Source of the DNA: Clostridia bacterium
Lineage (GTDB): Bacteria; Bacillota; DAOUPZ01
Direction of reading: 5' to 3'
Assembly: GCA_030625885.1 (NCBI GenBank)
Contig: DAOUPZ010000010.1
Span: forward strand, 29,812 to 93,811
DNA length: 64,000 nt
Both the position numbers and the translations under genes were made by a program. Below the pieces are notes generated by a model. That model saw only the letters and a list, made by a program, of their open reading frames with translations, had not been told where the DNA came from and did not search any database. This document shows, in pieces, positions 147 through 56,963 of the stretch. How positions within the stretch are numbered: the first letter of the stretch is position 1; each line of letters opens with the position of its first letter.

Positions 147-3100
147 CAACTATAGATGAAAAGATATATAATATTTTATTGAAATATATAAAGGGAAGGT
201 ATCTAGGAGATACTCTTTTTTGTTGTATATCAGGCTGCAATAATAGGGTGATAAAGTATATAAAAGACAATTTATCAATACTTCAAAGTATAGAGAAAGA
301 ATATCATATCATGCCTATTTTTGAAGAAAAAACCAATTTTTCGTTTAATGAAATTGTGAGAATAAGAAATGATAAGGATATTAAGAAAATAATTATTTTT
401 ACAAATGGAAGTATAAGTAATATAGATTCACTTAAGGATTTTGCCCAAGTTGACATTAAAAAAATTCCATTTATGGATTTATGGGGTATTATTCAAGAAG
501 AGTGTGAAATTTATTGGAATGAAAATGATAAGTATAATGCGATTGAAAAATTTTTAAAGGATTTAACAGATATAATACAGCCTGAAATATATAATTTAAT
601 AGAGTATTTAGAGAAAGTAAATAAAGATAGTGTAATATATGATGATTTAATTTTAGCATTGAATACAGATTTGTATATGTTTAATATCTGGGCATCTTCA
701 TGTAATACGGTGTTACGAAAAAGCAAATTACAGACTATATATCATAATTCTGATCCTATTCAAATTCATAAGAAGATAACATCACCAAAAGATATCGAAA
801 AAATACAAAAGAGCAAAGATATTGACAAAGCCATACGAGGAAGATTCGGCAATATACGAAAGCAAAAAACAATACTAAGAGAGATGTTTTATGAGCGAAA
901 ATATAGCCAAGCATACAGAGAAATTTATTATGAAATTATTGAAAATATTCTTAAAGGAAGTGGAAAAAAGAAGAAAAGGAAAACTCATGAAGAAGAGGAT
1001 TCTTATAGTTACACTAATATATATAGTCTAGCATTAGGTGCATTAGCAGATTTAGACAATGATGTCACAGTAAGTGTTGATGAAATTAAAAGAGTTACAA
1101 GTTTTAATGATATAGATTTTGAGAATGATGCTGAAGAAGATTATCATTATAAGGTTGATATACCGTATTACTCAAATGAACAAAGTAATAATGAAGATAT
1201 ATTCGTAAATTTGGAAGATGCTAAAGTGAAGTGGAGTCAGTTTCAAAATAACTTTGCAGATAAAGATTATAGAGAAGATATTGTAGAATTATGTGATAAT
1301 TTAAATATACATAATAAAGATAAAATAATTTTAAAAAATAAGTTGGAAAGGTATCTTAATGCTAGAGATTATTTTATAAAACAAAACAATAATCCAATTA
1401 ACCTCAATGGTCTATTAAATAATTCCATAAAGTATGTAACATCTTTTTTCGAACTAATAAAAGAATTATATAATTTTAGACAAGCTACAATAAAAAATAT
1501 TTCTATGAATGGTTTAATTAATAAACTTGTTAACATTGATATCAAAATAAAAAATAATGAAATATATGTACCATTCTATAGTCCATTATTAATATTTCAT
1601 TTGCATAATATGAGAAGTAGATATGAAAAATGTTTATCAATTATTAATAAAATGAATACATATAGAGTTGAGATATTAGAACAAATAAATACTAAAATTT
1701 TAAATGAATATATAGTTTATGATAATAAAACCTATTTATTATCTCAAGATAATAGTAAATTTCCTTATTACATTAAATATATATGTGAAGAATATGTAGA
1801 TAGTATTATTACAATTAATTTTAATGTTATTTCACCATATATAATTAAATATATTAAGAAATATCCTTATAAAAATATAATTAAATTATGTCTAATAGGT
1901 GAAGTAGATTTAAAATCATTAAAAAATACCCTGTTAAAAATATTAGAAAAGATAGATTATTCAAACTTAACACGTTTTAGGCTTAAAATTATTACAAAAT
2001 CACCCAATGATGTTAGAGAAGTTCTTATTTCATTGTTTGAACAAAAAGAAAGCTTAAATAAAAAAATTGAATGTACTATAGAAAGGATGAAGTTAAATAT
2101 TAATCTAGAAAAATATGTGGAGAATTTAATTATTGAAAATGATATAACACTATTTTTGGATAGCAGTATAATGTATTTAAAAACACGTTTTAATAAAAAG
2201 AATGATAGTTATATTGAGAGGGTGGTTAGCTATAGAGATATATCTAGTGAAATTAATAGTATTTCTTATGTTTTAGAAGGTAAAAAAGACAGTATGCCTA
2301 TTATACCTAATGTTATAAATGTATTACAGAACTCTATTGAAAATGAAAACTTACAGAATGGAGAACTAGATAAATATAACTTAAATAATAATTTGATTTC
2401 TTGTATAAATAAGACTTTAAGTGATCTGAAGAATGAAGATAAAGAAGTTATACTTCTTTCAAGTGATAGCAAAATAGATGAACAAATTTTAGATAATCGA
2501 AATCTTAGTGAAATTGACGAGGCTGTCAATAAAAATGACAAAATAAAAGTGTTGACATTTTGTAAATGCACTAAAAATAAAGATGAATATACATTTAAAG
2601 AAAGCAATCATTACATTGAGTTTAATGCAAGTAATTTGTTAGATAGTTTTTTAATTGATAGTAAGCTGGGTTTTTCTTTTATGGACATAGATTTTGAAGA
2701 TATAATTATACGTATGTCATATGGAAATTTTCCACAAGCAATTGATATAGCCTATTATTTTATTAAAGAGTATGATGATGAAATCAGTAAAAAGATTGAA
2801 ATTGAAGTAGAATGTAAAAAAATGTTTGATACATTTATTAAAGTATCTATTAAACCTGAGTTATTTTTAGATAATTATAACAAAGAAAATTTTGTTAAAC
2901 TATTGTTAAGGAGTGCTAAAACAGAGGAAGATGTAGTTTTTATATATTCATTTGAAAATATTTATAATGATATTAAAATTAATTATATAGGAAATATAGA
3001 TTATAAAGATAAATCAAATATTACTAAAATATCTTCAATTAATAGAAATACAGTGTATAGAATATTAAAAATTTTAGGTGAAGAAGCTATTTCTGAACAA

Positions 3101-3262
3101 GCAATAAATAATTTTTCAGAAATGCTCAAAGTTAATAATTTTAGTATTAGCAATTTACCAATGTTACAAATATTAATTTCAAAATATAACCACAATTATA
3201 ATAACATGAAATATTTATATGAGAATATAGGTGCCGTGATTAAAAATATGGAGGTGAAATAA
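134..3262 (+). CDS. Large hypothetical protein (1042 aa), N/K/I-rich, with no recognisable catalytic motif. It is the first complete gene of the island operon.
   Basis: Uninterrupted 3.1-kb ORF, RBS GGAGG 7 nt upstream. Its stop TAA is directly followed by the ATG of the next gene (taaATG). No Walker or other known motif found by eye. Confidence 0.7.
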   Translation: MVNITTIDEKIYNILLKYIKGRYLGDTLFCCISGCNNRVIKYIKDNLSILQSIEKEYHIMPIFEEKTNFSFNEIVRIRNDKDIKKIIIFTNGSISNIDSLKDFAQVDIKKIPFMDLWGIIQEECEIYWNENDKYNAIEKFLKDLTDIIQPEIYNLIEYLEKVNKDSVIYDDLILALNTDLYMFNIWASSCNTVLRKSKLQTIYHNSDPIQIHKKITSPKDIEKIQKSKDIDKAIRGRFGNIRKQKTILREMFYERKYSQAYREIYYEIIENILKGSGKKKKRKTHEEEDSYSYTNIYSLALGALADLDNDVTVSVDEIKRVTSFNDIDFENDAEEDYHYKVDIPYYSNEQSNNEDIFVNLEDAKVKWSQFQNNFADKDYREDIVELCDNLNIHNKDKIILKNKLERYLNARDYFIKQNNNPINLNGLLNNSIKYVTSFFELIKELYNFRQATIKNISMNGLINKLVNIDIKIKNNEIYVPFYSPLLIFHLHNMRSRYEKCLSIINKMNTYRVEILEQINTKILNEYIVYDNKTYLLSQDNSKFPYYIKYICEEYVDSIITINFNVISPYIIKYIKKYPYKNIIKLCLIGEVDLKSLKNTLLKILEKIDYSNLTRFRLKIITKSPNDVREVLISLFEQKESLNKKIECTIERMKLNINLEKYVENLIIENDITLFLDSSIMYLKTRFNKKNDSYIERVVSYRDISSEINSISYVLEGKKDSMPIIPNVINVLQNSIENENLQNGELDKYNLNNNLISCINKTLSDLKNEDKEVILLSSDSKIDEQILDNRNLSEIDEAVNKNDKIKVLTFCKCTKNKDEYTFKESNHYIEFNASNLLDSFLIDSKLGFSFMDIDFEDIIIRMSYGNFPQAIDIAYYFIKEYDDEISKKIEIEVECKKMFDTFIKVSIKPELFLDNYNKENFVKLLLRSAKTEEDVVFIYSFENIYNDIKINYIGNIDYKDKSNITKISSINRNTVYRILKILGEEAISEQAINNFSEMLKVNNFSISNLPMLQILISKYNHNYNNMKYLYENIGAVIKNMEVK

Positions 3263-4285
3263 ATGAATAATGAAACTGAAAAGAAAAGTAATATAATTTG
3301 TATAAATTCTATTAAAGGTGGAGCTGGAAAGACAACTATTGCATTATCATTAGCATATTCTTTGCTTTCAGAGTTAGAAGTTAAATATGATAGTGATAGA
3401 TTGCAAGGAGAAGATGAGAATGTTACAGAAATACAAGAGCCAAAAGTTTGTTATATTGATTTAGATATATTGGGTACGGGGGCTAAACACATAATTTATG
3501 GAGAAAATTATATTGAAGATGATATAAAGTATTTAAATGATATGAAATCTACCGATAAAGATTTTAAACAATACATAAACTACTTAATAATAGAAGGTAA
3601 AAAATTTTGTGTTGATTGTATTATATTGAATGATGCTCCTGAAGAAAAAAATAAGTTTATTAATAATGCACGTTCACATACATCTACAGTTAATATAAAT
3701 ATGTTTCAAGGTAGGGCAAAAAAATTATTAGCTGAAATAGTTAAAGAAAATATTTATGACTATATTATTATTGACTGTGCTCCAGGTTACGAAGGATTTT
3801 CGCGAAATATATATGATTATTTAAAAAAAGAAATCAAGCTAAGGTATAATCATGTGAGAAATGTATATAATTTATTTATAACCACTTTGGATAAAGCGCA
3901 TGTAATGAATACAATTTCTTTTGTATATAATATTATAACTGCCACTGATAATAACCTAAATATTAAAATAGTTCTAAATGATACTTTGAATTACTTTGAT
4001 AATGAAGGCAAAAAAGAGGAGTTTATTAGTAATGTGATTGATAAATTCTCATTATTAAGTAAGAAAGAGATGGAGGAGTGTGGGGACAACCATAATCCTT
4101 CAATAATTAGTTTTAATATTGAATCTATAGTTGTAAAAAAATATAGTGATATAGCATTAAATATGTTTTTTGGAAATGGCAAACAATTACATGGTACTAG
4201 ACTTTGTGAGAACATAGATGATCGAGAGCTAGTTAAAACATTAAAAATATTATCATTTGGAGGTAATGATATTGTGGATTATTGA
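3263..4285 (+). CDS. ParA/MinD/Soj-type P-loop ATPase (deviant Walker A).
   Basis: N-terminal ICINSIKGGAGKTTIALSLA matches the KGGxGKT deviant Walker A. The hydrophobic YDYIIIDCAPG matches a ParA-type Walker B. Translationally coupled to the flanking genes. Confidence 0.75.
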   Translation: MNNETEKKSNIICINSIKGGAGKTTIALSLAYSLLSELEVKYDSDRLQGEDENVTEIQEPKVCYIDLDILGTGAKHIIYGENYIEDDIKYLNDMKSTDKDFKQYINYLIIEGKKFCVDCIILNDAPEEKNKFINNARSHTSTVNINMFQGRAKKLLAEIVKENIYDYIIIDCAPGYEGFSRNIYDYLKKEIKLRYNHVRNVYNLFITTLDKAHVMNTISFVYNIITATDNNLNIKIVLNDTLNYFDNEGKKEEFISNVIDKFSLLSKKEMEECGDNHNPSIISFNIESIVVKKYSDIALNMFFGNGKQLHGTRLCENIDDRELVKTLKILSFGGNDIVDY

Positions 4286-5963
4286 TGATAATAATATGCA
4301 AAATTTTTTTTCTGAGTGGTACGATAAATCAAATAAGATATTTAGTGATGAATTATCGAATGATATAGAACAAATGAACAAAAACATATTTTTATCACAA
4401 AATATAGATTTGAATTATGCAACTATGCAAAAAAACTTACACATGATTTTTGGTGAAAATACAAATGTAGAAAAACAGGTTTGTTTATTTGATGGTGTAT
4501 TAGAATTTTTACAGCATGTTGTTCAAGTAGATGGAGCTGATAGATTATTTAGTAAACATTTTTATGATATTGAATGGAATATGTTTTTAGAAGCAGATTT
4601 TGAAAAAAGTGAGATGAAAGTATATAGAGATCATTTTGTACATCAAATTAGAAATGCTTATTTAGGATATTACCTAATATGGGAAATAGGATTATATAAA
4701 AATATTGAATATGCAGTTCATAAATATGGTTCAACAGGATTCTCACAATATATAAATATATATAAATCAAAAGAATTAAATTCTGATGATAGAAAAATTT
4801 TTTATCAAAAAGTAATAATGAAAACTTGGTTTTTATCAGCTCTTTTTCATGATATAGGATATCCATTAGCATATCACCAAAGATATTCAGCAAGAATGGA
4901 CAAATATATGCCATATCTTAGAGTTTTGGATAACAGAAGACAGATGGATTTTATAGAACTATCGGCATTATTATCAGATACTTACTTGTTTAAAATGGTT
5001 GATTATGAAGAATTGAAATTAAAATATGAAAGATTTGATCATGGAATGTTGTCAGCAATATGCTTGCTCTTAAACTATTATCATACCGGTGCTATACACA
5101 GATTGTCAAATTCGGATAGATGTTCAATTGAACTAGCTGCTTATGCAATATTTGTTCATACAAGAAATTATTCTATACAAGGAAATTTAGAAAAAAATAT
5201 AAGACCTATTTTTGTTGAAGATCCTATTGCATATCTGCTACGATTATGTGATGATTTACAAGAATGGGCAAGAGTATATTTTATAGTAGGAGAAAATAGT
5301 AATGTTTTAATATGTGATAAATGTAAAAAAACAGTTGAGAAACAGGAAAATAGTGATATATATAGATGTAAATGTGGTAATACCTTCAAGAAAATTACTT
5401 CCATTAATTATAGAAAGATTAATCTAGTTGAAGTATGTAAAAAACTAACAATTGAAGATGATGGTAAAAAAATTATCTTTAAATTGGATTATGATTTGTT
5501 AAAATTAATGGAAGTTATAAAAATAGATGAACAATATGCAAAATATAGGGTAAAAGAACTTTCCAATTTAAAGAAATTATTAACAGATCAAGCGTTATTA
5601 CCAGAAATTGATATTAATTACTTTATAAGTAATAATCATATGGAAATAAAAGTTGAAATATTCTTGAGATATATAGAAAAATATTTTAAAGAAAAATATA
5701 TTAAAATAGCGTCTAAAGATTCAAATAGAATTAAACATGAATTTATGTTAGAAAATCAGAAAGAAATAGAAACATCTATTATTCGCAATTTACACTTGGA
5801 GTGTGATGATAATATAAAAGAATCTCTACGATGTGAGATGGAGAGTATTATTGAATATTTATGCAATAATAAACAAAGAGAACTAATATGCAAAAATCCT
5901 CCATGTGAAAATTATATGGAAAATATATATCTATATACATTAATAGACGGTGTTTGTCAATAA
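4257..5963 (+). CDS. HD-domain (metal-dependent phosphohydrolase or nuclease-like) protein with an internal Cys4 zinc ribbon. Start is uncertain: TTG 4257 or 4272, or ATG 4296.
   Basis: RDHFVHQIRNAYLG (His motif I), LFHDIGYPLAYH (HD motif), FDHGMLSAICL and LLRLCDDLQEW (distal His and Asp). CDKCKK…(x14)…CKCG zinc ribbon. It overlaps the end of the ATPase gene by 29 nt. Confidence 0.6.
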   Translation: MEVMILWIIDDNNMQNFFSEWYDKSNKIFSDELSNDIEQMNKNIFLSQNIDLNYATMQKNLHMIFGENTNVEKQVCLFDGVLEFLQHVVQVDGADRLFSKHFYDIEWNMFLEADFEKSEMKVYRDHFVHQIRNAYLGYYLIWEIGLYKNIEYAVHKYGSTGFSQYINIYKSKELNSDDRKIFYQKVIMKTWFLSALFHDIGYPLAYHQRYSARMDKYMPYLRVLDNRRQMDFIELSALLSDTYLFKMVDYEELKLKYERFDHGMLSAICLLLNYYHTGAIHRLSNSDRCSIELAAYAIFVHTRNYSIQGNLEKNIRPIFVEDPIAYLLRLCDDLQEWARVYFIVGENSNVLICDKCKKTVEKQENSDIYRCKCGNTFKKITSINYRKINLVEVCKKLTIEDDGKKIIFKLDYDLLKLMEVIKIDEQYAKYRVKELSNLKKLLTDQALLPEIDINYFISNNHMEIKVEIFLRYIEKYFKEKYIKIASKDSNRIKHEFMLENQKEIETSIIRNLHLECDDNIKESLRCEMESIIEYLCNNKQRELICKNPPCENYMENIYLYTLIDGVCQ

Positions 5964-6095
5964 AGTTGTCATAAAAACCTAGAATTTCAGATTAATATTT
6001 TTCGGTATTTGTTGATCAGGTTTTTCCTCAGTTTGTTTTTCAGGATTAAGCCATACTTGATCTTCAAGTGACCAGTCACGAATGCCTTTGACGCT

Positions 6096-6215
6096 CTGTC
6101 AAAGGGACGGGGTTGTTGACAACACCCCTAATTTGGGATAACCTAGATTAGGGGTGTTTTTTATGCCGAGAAAAGCAAGAAACAAAATTGAGAGGCTAAC
6201 AGGTATCAACAGGGT
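6096..6215 (+). repeat. Structured repeat, copy 1: TTGACA, 36-nt perfect hairpin, T6, conserved ATGCCGAGAAAAGCAAGAA, and a GCTAACAGGTATCAACA box.
   Basis: Hairpin is ACACCCCTAATTTGGGATAACCTAGATTAGGGGTGT followed by TTTTTT. The flanking sequence aligns with copy 2 at 9198-9300. Confidence 0.7.
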
Positions 6216-6296
6216 GATTGTTTTAAAAGCAAAACAGCATCTTTTGTGGTATAATTATCCACAAAAGATGCTGTTTTTAGTATAGAGAGGAAGGAT

Positions 6297-6629
6297 ATGA
6301 TGGAAAAAATAAATTTAAGCGCTGCCAATGTGAAAAATGCTAAAAAAAATATCAAGAGGAACATTGATTTGCAAAAACCTTTTACTGTCGTGCTTCAAGG
6401 AAGAAAAGCGCAATCAATAATTAGAAAAATTAATACCTCTTCCCTTAAGGAGGATTTTGTAACCGCAAAAGGGGCATTATTAGATAGTGATTCTGATTTA
6501 AAATTTTATATCGTTGCAGCGATCGGGTTAATTACAATGGTAACTTCATTAGAAGGTTATAGACTATTTGTAAAAACAAATATAGATAATAGTGAGGAAG
6601 TAATAATCATATTTAAGAGAGAGAAATAA
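6297..6629 (+). CDS. Hypothetical small protein (110 aa).
   Basis: ORF with GAGAGGAAGG RBS-like sequence upstream. No motif recognised. Confidence 0.35.
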   Translation: MMEKINLSAANVKNAKKNIKRNIDLQKPFTVVLQGRKAQSIIRKINTSSLKEDFVTAKGALLDSDSDLKFYIVAAIGLITMVTSLEGYRLFVKTNIDNSEEVIIIFKREK

Positions 6630-6794
6630 ATTTTCCTCTTTCCTTCGCTTTTTCTGCAAACCTGTAATGTAAGTTTTTTATTGCGTTACGTATACTTAAA
6701 AAATAAAAGAGGAATACAATTTGTCAATCAGACAAATTAAGGGGTTAACGGGTATCAGCAATCTTGTTCCCCCTGCTAGATTGGAGGAAAACTT

Positions 6795-7079
6795 ATGCGG
6801 GATAATGTTTTAGATGAAATAAGAGAAATTGCTATGAAGTATAATATTCAAAAGGTTATACTGTTTGGCTCTCGTGCAAGGGGAGATTATTTACCTACTA
6901 GCGATTATGATTTTGCAATCATTGCAGAGGATTTATCTGTTTTGGATAAAGCTATTTTTTGTGCCGACGTTGAGGAAATTAACACACTCAAAAAAATTGA
7001 TATTGTATTTGTTGACTCAAATACTAGTAATGATTTGATGAAGAATATCAAGAGGGATGGTGTGATCATATATGAGTAA
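6795..7079 (+). CDS. Nucleotidyltransferase (MNT or MntA-like antitoxin) of an MNT/HEPN pair.
   Basis: LFGSRARGDYLPTSDYDFAI carries the GSxxxG…DxD pol-beta-type nucleotidyltransferase signature. It overlaps the downstream HEPN gene by 8 nt. Confidence 0.8.
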   Translation: MRDNVLDEIREIAMKYNIQKVILFGSRARGDYLPTSDYDFAIIAEDLSVLDKAIFCADVEEINTLKKIDIVFVDSNTSNDLMKNIKRDGVIIYE

Positions 7080-7464
7080 GTTAGAAACAAAATTAAATAA
7101 TTTTACTAATGCATTACAGAGATTAAAAGAAGCCGCAATAGAGCTTGAAAAAGATGATGCGAGTGATGTTGTGCGTGATGGTCTTATTCAAAGATTTGAG
7201 TTTACTTATGAACTTGCATGGAAGACCACAAAGCAATATTTGGAAGAGGTCGGTATTGTAGACAATAATTCTCCAAAAGCTGTTATAAAAGCAGCATATG
7301 CTCAGAATCTTATTTTTAATGAGCAAAACTGGTTACTTATGCTAAATGATAGAAATCTGACTTCTCATGTATATAAGGAAGAAATAGCAGAAGAAATAGC
7401 TGAGAGAATAACCGATTATTATATTAATGAATTTGAGAAATTGCTAAGCAAACTACAAGTATAA
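7072..7464 (+). CDS. HEPN-domain toxin (HepT-like).
   Basis: C-terminal RNLTSHVY fits the Rx4HxY HEPN motif. Size 130 aa. Gene order MNT then HEPN. Confidence 0.8.
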   Translation: MSKLETKLNNFTNALQRLKEAAIELEKDDASDVVRDGLIQRFEFTYELAWKTTKQYLEEVGIVDNNSPKAVIKAAYAQNLIFNEQNWLLMLNDRNLTSHVYKEEIAEEIAERITDYYINEFEKLLSKLQV

Positions 7465-7502
7465 ATAAGTCTGTTACCAGACAAAAACGGAAGGAGACGA
7501 CT

Positions 7503-7955
7503 ATGAAGAAATTAATTGTTTATGTTTCAGTACATCATAACAATACTAAGAAAGTAGCGGAGCGGATGGCAGCTGTTTTAGGTGCGGATTGCCTAGCAGC
7601 TAAAGATGTTGATCATGCGTTGCTTTTGGAATATGATGTGATTGGTTTGGGTTCGGGTATCTTTTTTGGTAGACATCATAATCGTTTGATTCAACTGGTT
7701 AAGGAAGCTGCTGTTTTAAAGGGGAAAAAGGTTTTTGTTTTTTCCACGGCTGGTTTTGAAAAAATAGCGTTTCATAATCACTTAAAACGATTACTTGATA
7801 ATATAGGTGCAGAAATTATAGGTGAATTTATTTGCTCTGGTTGGGATACTTATGGTCCTTTTAAATTAGTAGGTGGTATCAAAAAGAATAGACCGAATAA
7901 TCATGATTTAGAGCGGGCTGTTCAGTTTGCGGAGGAACTTAAAAAGGGAATATAA
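7503..7955 (+). CDS. Flavodoxin-like fold protein.
   Basis: MKKLIVYVSVHHNNTKKVAERMAAVLGA… has the typical flavodoxin N-terminus and a GLGSGIFFG loop. Confidence 0.5.
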   Translation: MKKLIVYVSVHHNNTKKVAERMAAVLGADCLAAKDVDHALLLEYDVIGLGSGIFFGRHHNRLIQLVKEAAVLKGKKVFVFSTAGFEKIAFHNHLKRLLDNIGAEIIGEFICSGWDTYGPFKLVGGIKKNRPNNHDLERAVQFAEELKKGI

Positions 7956-8024
7956 AGAAAGTATGGACTATATTTATGTATTGATAGTTTTTTATTTTAT
8001 TATATACTTTTTAGGGGTTGGGAA

Positions 8025-8070
8025 ACAATTAGGCATATTGTATTCATACAATATGCCTAATTGTTTTTTA
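8025..8070 (+). terminator. Intrinsic terminator after the flavodoxin-like gene.
   Basis: AAACAATTAGGCATATTGTA/TACAATATGCCTAATTGTTT perfect 20-bp stem followed by TTTTAAT. Confidence 0.6.
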
Positions 8071-8238
8071 ATTATATTAAAAATAAACATTGAACTGTTA
8101 TATGTAATGGTATATAATATAATTAAATAAAACATAATATAATATATATGCGGTATAAGCAAAATGAATCGATACAATAAAAGTATATAACAAGACAATT
8201 TATAAAAAATTTTTTAAAATATATAAAGGAGGCTTGGA

Positions 8239-9186
8239 ATGATGAAAGTTTTTGGACCAGTTCCTTCAAGGCGGTTAGGGCAAAGTTTGGGTATTAATAA
8301 TATTCCACCAAAATTTTGTACTTATTCCTGTGCATATTGTCAACTGGGGCACACTAAAAAAGTGCAAATTGAACGTCGTGAATTTTATAAACCAGCGGAG
8401 CTTGTAGCGGAGGTAGAAGAAAAAATAAAAAAAGCGGCAAAAGTAGGTGAGAAAATCGATTACATGACTTTCGTTGCAGATGGTGAACCCACTTTAGATA
8501 TTAATTTAGGTGCGATTATAGACGGTTTAAAACCGCTTGGTATTAAAATAGCCGTGATTAATAATAGTTCACTTATCTGGCGTGAAGATGTCAGAAACGA
8601 CCTTTTGAAAGCAGATTGGGTTTCTCTGAAAGTAGATAGCCTGAGAGAAGAAATATGGCGTAAGATAGATCGTCCTCATCGTGCTTTAAAGCTGGATTCT
8701 ATATTAGAAGGGATTCTGGCGTTTGCGAAAGTTTATAAAGGACAACTGATGACAGAAACGATGCTTGTAAAAGGTATTAACGATGAAGAAGAATATATTA
8801 AGGAAATTGCTGACTTTTTAGCAAAACTCAACCCCAACACATCCTACTTATCTATTCCAATCAGACCACCAGCTGAAGCGTGTATACAAGCGGCAGATGA
8901 AACATTTATCAATCAAGCTTATCAGATCATCAGTGAAAAAGTTAGCAATGTAGAATATCTGATCGGCTACGAAGGTAATGCCTTTGCTTTTACGGGAAAT
9001 GTAAAAGAAGATATCCTCAGTATTACTGCGGTACATCCAATGCGCCAAGATGCGATTGACGACTTTTTAGTTAAGGCAAATGCGACTTGGAATGTTATAA
9101 ATGATTTACTTAAAGAAGAAAAAATTTTCGAAATTAAACACGACAAAAATACTTTTTATATGCGAAATATTGGTTTAAGACGTTAG
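8239..9186 (+). CDS. Radical SAM enzyme.
   Basis: GPVPSRRLGQSLGINNIPPKFCTYSCAYCQLG carries the CxxxCxxC cluster motif immediately after the GPVPSRRLG N-terminus. Confidence 0.8.
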   Translation: MMKVFGPVPSRRLGQSLGINNIPPKFCTYSCAYCQLGHTKKVQIERREFYKPAELVAEVEEKIKKAAKVGEKIDYMTFVADGEPTLDINLGAIIDGLKPLGIKIAVINNSSLIWREDVRNDLLKADWVSLKVDSLREEIWRKIDRPHRALKLDSILEGILAFAKVYKGQLMTETMLVKGINDEEEYIKEIADFLAKLNPNTSYLSIPIRPPAEACIQAADETFINQAYQIISEKVSNVEYLIGYEGNAFAFTGNVKEDILSITAVHPMRQDAIDDFLVKANATWNVINDLLKEEKIFEIKHDKNTFYMRNIGLRR

Positions 9187-9197
9187 ATGCGAACGGG

Positions 9198-9300
9198 ATG
9201 TCAAGGGGGCAGGGTTATTGACAGTATCTCTAATCTAGGATAATCTAGATTAGAGATACTTTTTTATGCCAAGAAAAGCAAGAAGAAAGAGAGGCACAGG
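9198..9300 (+). repeat. Structured repeat, copy 2: TTGACA, 36-nt perfect hairpin, T6, conserved ATGCCAAGAAAAGCAAGAA.
   Basis: Hairpin is GTATCTCTAATCTAGGATAATCTAGATTAGAGATAC followed by TTTTTT. Outer stem bases differ from copy 1 but remain complementary. The inner CTAAT…GGATAA…CTAGATTAG core is conserved. Confidence 0.7.
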
Positions 9301-9304
9301 TAAT

Positions 9305-10033
9305 ATGGTAGTAATTATGATGTGTTTGATAATTATACTATTTGCCAGTGGTATTCAAGGGCTTACCAGTTTTGGATTTGCTATGATCGCAATACCCTTA
9401 TTAACGCTGTTTTTGCCTTTGAAAATTGTAACACCACTGCTTATTATCTATAGTTTGCTGGTTAATGTCATCATTATTTATAAGATAAAAGAATATATAC
9501 AAATTCAGAAAATGGTATATTTGATTATATCCGGGATAATAGGTACGCCTTTGGGGATTTATCTGTTATTAGTAATAGAGGAAGATATATTAAAAGCCGG
9601 TGTGGGAATTGTTATCTTGTTAGCTGCGGGGGCATTATATTATGGGTGTAAGGCAAATATTAAAAATCAAAAACTAGCGAACATCATAACAGGATTATTA
9701 AGTGGCATATTAAATGGTAGTTTAGCAATGAGTGGCCCGCCGGTCATTTTATTTTTGAAAAATGAAGATGTTGAAAAGCAAATTTTTCGAGCAAATCTTG
9801 CGTTCTACTTTGCTATTATTGACCTATTAACCATACCCATATTGATTTATGGAGGATTGATCACACAGGAGGTCTTAAGATATACGTTGTTTTTATTACC
9901 GGGACTTATTATAGGCGCATGGCTTGGAATGTATTTTAGTAATAAGGTGAACAATGAGATATTTAAAAGATTTACTTTATACCTAATAGCTGTTATGGGT
10001 GTTTTATCAATTGTGTCTTCAGTTATTAAATGA
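9305..10033 (+). CDS. TSUP (TauE/SafE) family membrane transporter. The start is probably at the internal Met MVVIMM rather than the MPRKAR of the ORF track.
   Basis: Polytopic membrane protein with duplicated 4-TM halves and GIIGTPLG / SGILNGSLAMSGPP glycine-rich motifs. The first 13 codons of the tracked ORF lie inside the repeat element. Confidence 0.6.
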   Translation: MVVIMMCLIIILFASGIQGLTSFGFAMIAIPLLTLFLPLKIVTPLLIIYSLLVNVIIIYKIKEYIQIQKMVYLIISGIIGTPLGIYLLLVIEEDILKAGVGIVILLAAGALYYGCKANIKNQKLANIITGLLSGILNGSLAMSGPPVILFLKNEDVEKQIFRANLAFYFAIIDLLTIPILIYGGLITQEVLRYTLFLLPGLIIGAWLGMYFSNKVNNEIFKRFTLYLIAVMGVLSIVSSVIK

Positions 10034-10293
10034 TTTTTATTCCCTCCCAAAATGCTTCTGCAAATTTCGGCATATTTTCCTAAAAGAATCTACAATAGAA
10101 AACATCACTATTGAGCTATAATGATGATGAAGTATTGCCAAGTCTTAATTGGGATTTTCCCGACACATGGATTTTTAACGGAGAAGATGCAATAAGACCG
10201 ACTCTTAAAAATGTAGGGGATGATAACGGGCAATAATTAATCCTAAACTCATTTCCTTGTGTCAAGATGAGGGGTTAAAGTTAAAAATTACTA

Positions 10294-10322
10294 TTGACAA
10301 ATGCATGATGAACAGGTATCAT
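10294..10322 (+). promoter_or_regulatory. Sigma-A-type promoter upstream of the SAM riboswitch.
   Basis: TTGACA at 10294-10299, 17-nt spacer, TATCAT at 10317-10322. Confidence 0.5.
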
Positions 10323-10361
10323 ATTTAGAAATAACAATTAAATATTAATCATGATCAATTG

Positions 10362-10482
10362 ATCTCTTATCGAGAGATGGCGGAGGGACTGGCCCAATGA
10401 AGCCCGGCAACCGATCTTTGCACATTTGTAGAGACACGGTGCCAATTCCAGCAGAATACATTTATTCTGACAGATAAGGGGA
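10362..10482 (+). ncRNA. SAM-I (S-box) riboswitch.
   Basis: CTCTTATCGAGAGATGGCGGAGGGACTGGCCCAATGAAGCCCGGCAACC…GGTGCCAATTCCAGCAGA…GATAAGGGGAGG matches the S-box consensus, including the P1 halves CTCTTATC/GATAAG. Confidence 0.85.
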
Positions 10483-10502
10483 GGCGTGTTTTTTGTGTAC
10501 TT

Positions 10503-10537
10503 TAAAACCTCTTCTTATTGGAGAGGTTTTTTGTTTT
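10503..10537 (+). terminator. Riboswitch expression-platform terminator.
   Basis: AACCTCTCTTATTGGAGAGGTT followed by a T-run. Its 5' arm CCTCTCTTAT can alternatively pair with the P1 3' strand GATAAGGGGAGG as an antiterminator. Confidence 0.7.
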
Positions 10538-10627
10538 GTGTAAGAAGTGATAAATTTGATTGAGAAAAAGAAAACGACTTAATGAGAATGACGTATGTTG
10601 TAATTGTGAAATTATTTTGAGAAGGGA

Positions 10628-12004
10628 ATGAGTGATATGAGGCGTTTAAGACAGTGTGGTAAAGAACATCCGTATATTTCTGTAGGAATATTTAAGCTTA
10701 GGATCCCATTTGTGCATTATGGATGGGAATGGCCTGAAGCTTTGCAAGGTATGATATTAGTTGCCGTGGCATTAGGTGCAATACCTATATTACAGGAAAC
10801 GTTAGGCGTTTCTTTTGATTTGGCGCTAACCATAGTTGCTTTGAATGGGATTTTATATGTTCTACATCCTACCTTTGGCGATCCGGTATTTCCGGGTTGG
10901 ATTACGCCTGCTATTCCTCTTGTATTAGGTTATACGGCTGGATTTTCCCAAGGCATTGATCGAATTCATGCTATTATTGCTTTGCAGTTATCTATGGCCA
11001 TCGTTTTTACTTTTATGGGGGTAACAGGTTTAGCTAAAAAAATGGTATCTATTGTACCGGTTTCCATGAGGGCGGGTATTATACTGGGAGCCGGTATTGC
11101 GGCCGTAGTAAGCGTTATTAAACCAGATGGCCGTATGGCCGGTCAAGAAACAACGATCTTAATCGGGAGTGTGATCTGTTATATTATTTTGTTTTCCTAT
11201 CGTTTCAGTTGTGTGAAAGAAAAAGTGGGGTTTTTGAAATATTTATCTAAATACGGTATGCTCCCTGGCATGATTATCGCCGCAATTATTGGCCCAATAG
11301 TGGGGGAGATTACATTTCCGCAAATAGAGATGGGGATGATCAGTTTTAGATTGGGTGAAGTGATTAAAGGGTATTCCGTTTTTGGTATTCCTGGTTTCCC
11401 GCCGCTTACGTATTTTCTCAAGGCGATTCCCCTGGCCATTACGGCTTATATTATAGCTTTTGGCGATTTTGTTGTCGCTGAGGTGGTAGCCAAGGATTCT
11501 AATAAGGTTCGTGGTGATGAACAGATTGATTTTAATGCCAATCGCTCCAATATTATTGCAGGTATAAGAAATTTAATCATGGGATTATTTGCACCATTTG
11601 CACCGTTATGCGGCCCGTTATGGGCCGGTGGTACCCTATCGATATATGAACGTTATAAAAGTGGTAGAAGGGATATGGATACCATATTTGGAGGAGCGGG
11701 TTCATATGTTATTACCATGGCGATTGCCGCATTTTTCTTACCCATTATTTCATTAGTAAAACCTGTGCTTCCTGCTGCTTTATCATTAACATTAATTGTT
11801 CAAGGGTTTGCATGTATCTATATCTCAATGGACATGATTAATACAAAGGAAGAACGTGGCACAGCAGGGATCATGGCTATTTTCTTAGCTTTTAGGGGTG
11901 CCTCATGGGGATTAGCAGCGGGTATTGTGCTTTGTTTGATTATTGGTTATAAGAAAGAGGTCATTGAATTGACTCCAAAATCTAAGGCGAAACGGTTAGC
12001 ATAA
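10628..12004 (+). CDS. Polytopic membrane transporter of unrecognised family, SAM-riboswitch regulated (alternative start ATG 10637).
   Basis: 458-aa hydrophobic protein with many predicted TM segments, directly downstream of the S-box leader. Confidence 0.6.
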   Translation: MSDMRRLRQCGKEHPYISVGIFKLRIPFVHYGWEWPEALQGMILVAVALGAIPILQETLGVSFDLALTIVALNGILYVLHPTFGDPVFPGWITPAIPLVLGYTAGFSQGIDRIHAIIALQLSMAIVFTFMGVTGLAKKMVSIVPVSMRAGIILGAGIAAVVSVIKPDGRMAGQETTILIGSVICYIILFSYRFSCVKEKVGFLKYLSKYGMLPGMIIAAIIGPIVGEITFPQIEMGMISFRLGEVIKGYSVFGIPGFPPLTYFLKAIPLAITAYIIAFGDFVVAEVVAKDSNKVRGDEQIDFNANRSNIIAGIRNLIMGLFAPFAPLCGPLWAGGTLSIYERYKSGRRDMDTIFGGAGSYVITMAIAAFFLPIISLVKPVLPAALSLTLIVQGFACIYISMDMINTKEERGTAGIMAIFLAFRGASWGLAAGIVLCLIIGYKKEVIELTPKSKAKRLA

Positions 12005-23777: not shown

Positions 23778-24401
23778 ATGGGAAATAAACAGGAACTGTT
23801 TTGGGAATTTGAAAAACATTTAATGGAAGATTCCAAACCATCTAACTATTTCAATGAAATGCTTAAGTCAGGGCTGTTTTCCGAAACATATCCTTTTACA
23901 TTATTAGGAGATTTAATGGATACATCGCAATCGGCCAAGTATCATCCAGAAGGGAGTGTTTGGAATCATACCATGCTGGTTGTGGATCAAGCTGCTCAAG
24001 TGAAGCAGCGCAGCCAAGCGCCACGAGTTTTTATGTGGGCAGCGTTATTACATGATTTAGGCAAAGCCCGTACAACCAGAGAGAAGAAGGGCAGGATTAC
24101 TTCTTATGATCATGATAAATGTGGGGCAAAACTTGCTGCAGAATTTCTCGAAGTATTTAGCGATGATCAGGATTATATAAAAAAGGTAGCGAAAATGGTA
24201 AGATGGCATATGCAAACGCTTTTTGTGGTACGTGATTTGCCATTTGCAGAAATTAAGAAAATGCTTGATGAAGTTTCACTGGATGAAATTGCGTTATTGT
24301 CATTGTGCGACCGTTTAGGGAGAGGTGGGATGACACCGCAGAAAATCGCAGAAGAACGAGAAAATATCAGATGCTTTGTGGAAAAATGCCAGACTTACTA
24401 A
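23778..24401 (+). CDS. HD-domain phosphohydrolase.
   Basis: H…LLHDLGK…D motif series. Confidence 0.65.
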   Translation: MGNKQELFWEFEKHLMEDSKPSNYFNEMLKSGLFSETYPFTLLGDLMDTSQSAKYHPEGSVWNHTMLVVDQAAQVKQRSQAPRVFMWAALLHDLGKARTTREKKGRITSYDHDKCGAKLAAEFLEVFSDDQDYIKKVAKMVRWHMQTLFVVRDLPFAEIKKMLDEVSLDEIALLSLCDRLGRGGMTPQKIAEERENIRCFVEKCQTY

Positions 24402-56815: not shown

Positions 56816-56935
56816 ATATGTCTCTTCGGGGTGGGTGCAAGTCCCAACCGGCGGTTAAAGCCCGCGAGCCACATCATGTGGTTGATTCAGTGTAATTCTG
56901 AAGCCGACAGTTAAAGTCTGGATGGGAGAAGAGGA
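56816..56935 (+). ncRNA. FMN riboswitch (RFN element).
   Basis: TCTCTTCGGGGTGGGTGCAAGTCCCAACCGGCGGT…AGCCCGCGAGC…GGTTGATTCAGTGTAATTCTGAAGCCGACAGT.AAAGTCTGGATGGGAGAAGAGG matches the RFN consensus. Confidence 0.9.
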
Positions 56936-56963
56936 TTTAGAATAATTTTGTAGTGATATGTAT

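Follow-up and report, generated by a model that had tools for sequence, protein, structure and literature searches.

What kind of protein is encoded by the open reading frame (ORF) at 4257-5963 of a 64,000-nucleotide stretch of Clostridia bacterium DNA (contig DAOUPZ010000010.1, positions 29,812 to 93,811; the whole stretch is hereafter called the window), and what might it do beside the ParA-like ATPase that is encoded just ahead of it? The original prediction had read this ORF (here gene E) as an HD-domain protein with an embedded four-cysteine (Cys4) zinc ribbon, paired with the ATPase and acting as a putative immune effector. We find that gene E is the last gene of a five-gene operon (A-B-C-D-E) that is cut by the left edge of the window, and that it belongs to a large uncharacterised family for which no Pfam model exists. 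As judged from its motifs and from profile comparisons, the protein very probably carries an HD-superfamily domain, and we consider it reasonably probable, though by no means assured, that it is the catalytic nuclease effector, controlled by the ATPase, of an undescribed and horizontally mobile candidate defence operon.

The gene E family and its candidate HD domain

A search of 5.8 billion proteins recovered 153 homologs of the gene E protein, none of which had a Pfam domain or an informative name, while a profile of its HD region matched 1,664 proteins at E <= 1e-3 (195 at E <= 1e-30) among 1.84 billion cluster representatives, the best 150 matches all being close members of the family. All the motifs that had been quoted from the ORF were located (Table 1), and their key residues proved invariant in an alignment of 43 diverse homologs (28% mean column identity): R124, H126, H129, Q130, H198, D199, I200, G201, Y202, P203, H262, H301, T302, R329, D332, D333, Q335, E336 and W337, together with five cysteines (C353, C356, C371, C373 and C394). 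By the measure of this alignment, the conservation of the motifs is far beyond chance. The invariant H..HD..H..H..D series (H126/H129, H198-D199, H262, H301, D332) follows the ligand order of the HD superfamily, as had been proposed, and H126 or H129, H198-D199, H262, H301 and D332 are the putative metal ligands. A six-residue H, HD, H, H, D pattern characterises the superfamily's binuclear members, and it is common to the phosphodiesterase-type HD enzymes. Relatives from reference genomes, at 23-27% identity to gene E, retain RDHxxHQ, FHDIGYP, THG, MHD and D..QEF.RP, and we regard D332 as the likely final ligand since this Asp is also kept in that clade.

The profile search with PF01966, which the original prediction had put forward as a check, answered in part: relatives approach the cut-off, but none exceeds it and gene E itself is unmatched. 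Scanned member by member, 8 of the 43 homologs matched PF01966, which made it the commonest Pfam match (best E 0.029, all sub-threshold), and the distant relatives at 23-27% identity matched it at E = 9e-4 to 0.08 (best 19.9 bits versus a cut-off of 22), their FHDIGYP segment landing on profile positions 22-48, the site of the HD doublet. A Pfam scan of the gene E protein gave no HD match at E <= 1, its HD region had no Pfam, NCBIfam or PHROG match, and its sole PADLOC match was a non-significant one to the Cas3 HD model (E = 0.41).

The window holds a reference of its own for such comparisons, a canonical 207-aa HD-domain protein (23778-24401, + strand; PF01966 6.8e-10) that matches PDB entries 3wfp (the HD-like domain of an A-adding enzyme) and 2pq7, and whose five motifs parallel those of gene E. 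When the gene E family profile was aligned by hhalign with a profile built from 80 metagenomic relatives of this protein, the two matched with P = 2.1e-5 (probability 76.7%), pairing ...aaLFHDIGYP... of the gene E family with ...aaLLHDiGK... of the reference; at a permissive threshold the terminal LLRlCDDL also fell on ALLglCDRL, and the alignment did not cover the first and middle His motifs. Alignments by hhalign with single sequences were uninformative, be it with YfbR of E. coli or with the HD protein of the window (HD motif only, probability 8%). A homolog search with YfbR, made for building an HD profile, brought back nothing more distant than relatives at >= 79% identity, which were too close to be of use, and a scan of IMG/VR with it found nothing. 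Ranking 2,726 local ORFs by the family hidden Markov model placed three canonical HD proteins in the first eleven non-family matches, a result that we discount as partly circular, since the profile and the selection both lean on the HDIG motif.

The fold comparison that had likewise been proposed began from a confident AlphaFold2 model of the gene E protein (predicted local distance difference test score 87.4, predicted template modelling score 0.90), in which residues 126-338 are all-helical, with the conserved His and Asp residues at helix ends. Farther along the model, C353, C356, C371 and C373 lie among predicted beta strands (359-362, 368-370, 376-378). The zinc ribbon that had been read here stood as regards its invariant Cys4 set and the beta-strand segment, but not as regards its spacing: the 14 residues separate the second from the third Cys, and 12 residues lie between CDKCKK and CKCG. 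In 270 of 308 family members the pattern CxxC-x(12-52)-CxC, with a loop of variable length, comes just after the DDxQEWxR motif, and the weak Pfam and PDB matches found in the segment were only to zinc-ribbon proteins or domains (eL43, JACKDAW, HVO_2753, DUF7695, Zn_ribbon_recom, HypA). The clade at 23-27% identity has no zinc ribbon.

Compared with the HD phosphohydrolases (PF01966; the Cas3 and Cas10 HD nucleases; CCA-adding-type HD), gene E shows the same His/Asp order and a predicted all-helical domain, and its 'hydrophobic helix + HDIG' and the terminal Asp of 'LxLCDxL' agree in context with those of the HD protein of the window; it differs in that the motifs are split by large insertions (about 70 aa from the first His to the HD doublet) and in its fused candidate zinc ribbon and C-terminal domain. 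We reason that the protein is best placed as a new, divergent family of the HD superfamily, with a zinc-ribbon insertion, that lies below the Pfam threshold.

A distant relative in Desulfosporosinus sp. OT (665 aa; contig L064, 139-2136) has two HD-type domains in one protein: an N-terminal canonical HD-CE/PF01966 domain (HD-CE 1.2e-17) and a C-terminal domain of the gene E family (RDHFIH, FHDIGYP, CDEIQEW). It has no ParA-like gene beside it, and a homolog search with its HD-CE domain returned nothing.

The ATPase partner, the operon and its surroundings

The protein encoded by gene D matches Pfam AAA_31 (8e-10, 39.3 bits, cut-off 27) and the PHROG family 'ParA-like partition protein' (8e-15). 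In common with the ParA/MinD/Soj ATPases, it has a KGGxGKT deviant Walker A (K18-G-G-x-G-K23, with the signature lysine), a DxD Walker A' (D66-x-D68) and an hhhhDxxP Walker B (D171..P174), all of them conserved: K18, G19, G20, G22, K23, D66, D68 and D171 are kept in 51-53 of 53 homologs and P174 in 50 of the 53. Hence, gene D is expected to bind and hydrolyse ATP. It departs from these ATPases in that the model match covers mainly the N-terminal P-loop region and in that its invariant neighbour is the HD protein, with no ParB, MinE-type or centromere partner gene in any annotated operon context; we rejected a true ParABS partition locus for the lack of ParB.

The pairing of the two genes, which had been pointed out for this locus, is conserved in essentially every locus examined: a ParA-like gene stands directly upstream of the E-type gene in 53/53 genome loci with a readable upstream gene, and usually overlaps it, as the 3' end of gene D overlaps the gene E reading frame here. 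It reaches one distant clade (Bacteroidota, Ignavibacteriota, Cloacimonadota), where an ATPase of 560-700 aa, above the Pfam thresholds of CbiA, ParA and AAA_31, is followed by an HD-like protein of 440-460 aa without the ribbon; other distant branches of the family have no ATPase partner. In the window, the real start of gene E is probably ATG 4266 or TTG 4272 rather than the TTG at 4257 that opens the longest ORF, as read from a GGAGG sequence that lies 2 nt ahead of the former and 8 nt ahead of the latter; ATG 4266 is also the start of a database protein (P0001) that is 100% identical to the gene E product. Since either start falls inside the last codons of gene D (which ends at 4285), the two genes are translationally coupled.

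The original prediction covered three of the five genes, and the window starts inside the operon. We read the upstream part from a Logan contig (L001, in which the five genes span 1652-10636). It matches the window at 100% identity along 6,683 bp and reaches 4673 bp further left, where two more co-oriented and tightly packed genes (A and B) are preceded by an integrase fragment. Gene A matches PADLOC SspF (9.3e-23 over residues 15-267) and has a conserved Walker A motif, whereas the match of gene B to NCBIfam antiphage_MADS7 (1.7e-8, 34 bits) is far under the 410-bit cut-off. Gene C gave no Pfam, PADLOC or NCBIfam match; its residue D676 is invariant. Gene A also encodes a ferredoxin-like Cys cluster (CSDCKLCNNCP; C181, C184, C190 and C241 kept in 32/33 homologs), which could be a metal or Fe-S site. 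GC content is 0.24-0.25 in the first 6 kb of the window, versus 0.33-0.42 elsewhere, and rises to 0.33 around the terminator-like hairpin that ends the operon.

Neighbourhoods were surveyed in 65 loci from one-genome-per-species reference genomes and in 9 metagenome contexts, across all of which the gene order was identical. Two architectures were found: type 1 (A-B-C-D-E, the window included), with E proteins of 525-580 aa, and type 2 (C'-D-E), in which C' has about 700-900 aa and E 730-960 aa. Homology by hhalign links C with C' (probability 99.4%, E = 7e-22, 540 columns) and the D groups of the two types with each other (99.9%); C-D-E therefore forms the core and A and B an add-on. The Walker A motif was absent from the C proteins examined (29 of type 1 and 19 of type 2). 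The original prediction is thereby extended to a universal pairing, a three-gene core and, in this instance, five genes. The type-2 E proteins (e.g., L005, 10001-12403) have an additional N-terminal segment and are also extended at the C-terminus, where they close with a conserved 'DA(Y/F)TDL', a motif not present in the gene E protein of the window.

Table 1. Genes, motifs and signals of the operon (window positions, unless another contig is named)
Feature	Position	Strand	Gene E residues	Basis or remark
Gene A, SspF-like P-loop ATPase, 550 aa	L001 1652-3304, upstream of window start			PADLOC SspF, Walker A
Gene B, MAD7-like, 504 aa	3..146	+		3' end only, cut by window edge
Gene C, 1042 aa	134..3262	+		Unknown fold; first gene of C-D-E core
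Gene D, ParA/MinD-class (deviant Walker A) ATPase, 340 aa	3263..4285	+		Pfam AAA_31, PHROG, motifs
Gene E, predicted HD-superfamily domain, Cys4 zinc ribbon and C-terminal alpha/beta domain	4257..5963	+		Longest ORF, 568 aa, TTG start
Putative ribosome-binding site of gene E (GGAGG), within gene D 3' end	4259..4263	+		Sequence reading
Candidate divergent HD domain	4614..5276	+	~120-340	Invariant columns, sub-threshold PF01966 matches, hhalign
RDHFVHQ	4626-4646	+	124-130	
FHDIGYP	4845-4865	+	197-203	
DHG	5037-5045	+	261-263	
HT	5157-5162	+	301-302	
CDDLQEW	5247-5267	+	331-337	
Putative Cys4 zinc ribbon (CDKCKK...CKC)	5313-5375	+	353-373	C353-x2-C356-x14-C371-x-C373
Intrinsic-terminator-like hairpin, end of operon	6121..6158	+		17-bp stem, then T run

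The operon is hosted mostly by Lachnospiraceae and other Clostridia of gut metagenomes, with scattered occurrences in Calditrichales and Rikenellaceae. Its flanks vary between loci and hold two integrases and one transposase in L002, an integrase and a DDE transposase in L005, a UPF0236 transposase in L075, and transposases with a TIR-CHAT-TPR protein in L077, while the neighbourhood in L003 is free of mobile-element genes. In one case (L076, 1-11599) the five-gene operon comes immediately after TnsA, TnsB and TniQ/TnsD genes, and is therefore apparently the cargo of a Tn7-like element; an Mrr-type (Mrr_cat) nuclease is encoded about 6 kb further downstream, and in L027 cas3 is found about 10 kb from the operon. 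No methyltransferase, PAPS-reductase-like (3'-phosphoadenosine 5'-phosphosulfate), cysteine-desulfurase or other modification gene was present within 10 kb in 8 annotated contexts. The operon is almost absent from phage contigs, the 2.9 million viral contigs searched having yielded one distant relative only, and att-like direct repeats around the low-GC island amounted to AT-rich chance matches.

Downstream of the operon, a 110-aa ORF (6297-6629, + strand) between the terminator and the next gene pair has a weak PADLOC match (PDC-M38B, E = 0.016) and no other family match, and is not kept beside the operon in other loci. The pair that follows (6795-7464, + strand) consists of overlapping genes for a minimal nucleotidyltransferase (Polbeta/NTP_transf_2, 4e-18) and an NTase_sub_bind protein (HEPN-like, 2.6e-39), and looks, by these matches, like an MNT/HEPN toxin-antitoxin-type module. 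A near-perfect hairpin at 8021-8068 (20-bp stem, GGAAACAATTAGGCATATTGTA..., then a T run), between flavodoxin and radical-SAM genes, is possibly a terminator, or else a repeat element. Two riboswitches score above the Rfam gathering threshold, an S-adenosylmethionine (SAM, S-box) riboswitch at 10364-10480, upstream of the gene for a 458-aa membrane protein, and a flavin mononucleotide (FMN) riboswitch at 56818-56937, which is consistent with a Bacillota host.

The candidate role of gene E and its rivals

With gene A scoring as SspF, gene B as a remote MAD7, a large third protein and the same order, the operon is reminiscent of SspFGH, DndFGH (DptFGH) and MAD6-8. However, genes B and C have no PADLOC match, SspG and SspH were not found in the operon, no similarity of gene C to SspH, DptH or MAD8 was detected, and gene C is without the FtsK-like ATPase that SspH carries at its C-terminus (PMC8092258). 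Neither sspBCD nor dnd nor methyltransferase genes lie near the operon; with regard to MADS, there is no MAD6 or MAD8 match and no methylase in it, the remote match of gene B standing alone; and the ParA-like and HD genes are additions, the C-D-E core existing also without A and B. Going by these matches, the operon resembles the SspFGH/MADS modules through gene A and, weakly, gene B only, and fails their other defining features; an assignment to Ssp or Dnd was rejected (no modification genes, no SspG or SspH). Given that SspFGH inflicts damage on DNA that is unmodified and is toxic when its modification partner is missing (PMC8092258), and that MAD6-8 are the mandatory core of MADS (bioRxiv 10.1101/2023.03.30.534895), the lack of modification genes here is notable, and it either marks a true difference or shows that the Ssp/MADS analogy is loose. 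As for Cas3, the HD domain of gene E would likewise supply the presumed catalytic activity in a defence operon with an ATPase, but it has no helicase fusion, its partner ATPase is of the ParA/MinD class and not of helicase superfamily 2 (SF2), and the operon has no helicase or cas genes; we rejected a Cas3-like protein for the lack of a helicase. In the literature we found no description of a system that combines a ParA-like ATPase with an HD protein.

Zinc ribbons fused to catalytic domains are usually nucleic-acid binders. This, together with the DNA-associated types of the partners and the analogy with the HD domains of Cas3 and Cas10, makes a metal-dependent nucleic-acid phosphodiesterase the most likely identity of gene E. 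Its HD site, probably binuclear as in Cas3/Cas10 HD and phosphodiesterases, would cleave nucleic-acid phosphodiester bonds, with the zinc ribbon helping to hold the substrate. Gene D would dimerise on ATP and DNA and thus provide an ATP-dependent switch or DNA platform that recruits or licenses the gene E enzyme, while gene C may be a scaffold or sensor and genes A and B would add a DNA-surveillance layer of SspFGH/MADS type, here without a modification enzyme. The proposal that gene E is an immune effector comes from the genomic context: the SspF and MAD7 matches of genes A and B, the low-GC island with an integrase fragment upstream and the MNT/HEPN pair downstream, the mobile-element and defence genes near the operon elsewhere, and its rarity in viral contigs. 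As a whole the original prediction is supported, in its HD part through sequence comparison and in the immune role through that context.

We tentatively entertain a more specific version, which we hold to be possible but not likely, namely that C-D-E is a new, modification-independent type of defence, in which the ParA/MinD-class ATPase senses the state or location of DNA and licenses the HD-zinc-ribbon nuclease. Gene D would then form an ATP sandwich dimer on nucleoid or foreign DNA and substitute for the FtsK/HerA-type motor that the Ssp, Dnd and MADS restriction modules have, while A and B would indicate that SspF/MAD7-type sensors can be plugged onto the core without a DNA-modification partner.

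Several observations weigh against gene E being an HD nuclease effector. None of the HD models scored above the curated Pfam gathering threshold, and the PDB yielded no HD protein to HMMER searches, whether with the family profiles (A1, A2) or with that of the distant clade (A4). The confident helical domain of the model did not translate into a significant fold match, as all Foldseek matches of the full model were non-significant (E >= 0.13), those with the domain-only model were weaker, and viral structures returned nothing. The top matches (non-significant as well) were to HD-type enzymes, the C-terminal domain of PPX/GppA and PDE10, which act on small molecules and not on nucleic acid. With a mean net charge of +1.2, the zinc-ribbon segment is no more than weakly basic, and the charge analysis did not discriminate between substrates. 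The operon contains no modification partner, although modules of the SspFGH/MADS type normally need one against self-damage, and genes C, D and E are recognised by no defence library (PADLOC 2023, NCBIfam 2026).

The main rival as regards gene E itself is a small-molecule substrate. We think it rather unlikely that the protein is such a phosphohydrolase, either depleting deoxynucleoside triphosphates (dNTPs) in the manner of SAMHD1/dGTPase or degrading a nucleotide signal or alarmone (a cyclic nucleoside monophosphate, a cyclic oligonucleotide, (p)ppGpp or polyphosphate). The best structural neighbours, though non-significant, are indeed the exopolyphosphatase/GppA C-terminal domain and cyclic-nucleotide phosphodiesterases, and the sharing of the H..HD..H..H..D pattern with phosphodiesterase-type HD enzymes and the lack of a strongly basic charge in the zinc-ribbon region fit this as well; yet no annotated operon has a gene for a nucleotide cyclase or synthetase, the partners (the ParA-like and SspF-like ATPases) are of DNA-associated types, and the usual ligand of ribbons fused to catalytic domains is nucleic acid. 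SAMHD1/dGTPase would be a precedent for an HD-superfamily enzyme as antiviral effector, a role that for gene E is taken from context, but there is no sequence match, and gene E stands in a multi-gene operon and carries a putative zinc ribbon, whereas SAMHD1/dGTPase-type enzymes act alone, as dNTP triphosphohydrolases.

For the operon, the main rival is a role outside defence: a module that serves mobile elements in maintenance, partition or DNA processing (the ATPase positioning and the HD protein processing DNA), or a housekeeping function. We rate this as less probable still. The ParA/MinD class of gene D would suit it, as would the travelling of the operon with integrases, transposases and a Tn7-like element, but no ParB or centromere-binding partner accompanies gene D, the operon is chromosomal in unrelated neighbourhoods (some of which, such as L003, lack mobile-element genes), the proteins that genes A and B resemble are known from defence systems only, and further defence genes lie near several loci. 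Lastly, we deem it very improbable that the HD-like motifs arose by convergence or are vestigial, in a helical domain that serves as a non-catalytic scaffold, for although significant HD profile or fold matches are lacking and hhalign is confident over the HD motif only, every candidate ligand is invariant at ~30% identity and kept in the clade at 23-27%, which is not expected of a decayed site, and the motif contexts (a hydrophobic helix then HDIG; LxLCDxL) parallel those of the canonical HD protein that the window also encodes.

If gene E is the HD nuclease effector that we propose, a large family without a Pfam model (about 1,660 clusters at 50% identity, mostly from gut Lachnospiraceae and other Clostridia) would gain a fold, an active site and a role. 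It would also add a new multi-gene defence architecture, compact in size (3 to 5 genes, 5 to 9 kb), whose HD enzyme is under the control of a ParA-type ATPase and whose SspF/MAD7-like components work without phosphorothioation or methylation genes, and which would bear on how the restriction modules of Ssp, Dnd and MADS type discriminate self from non-self.

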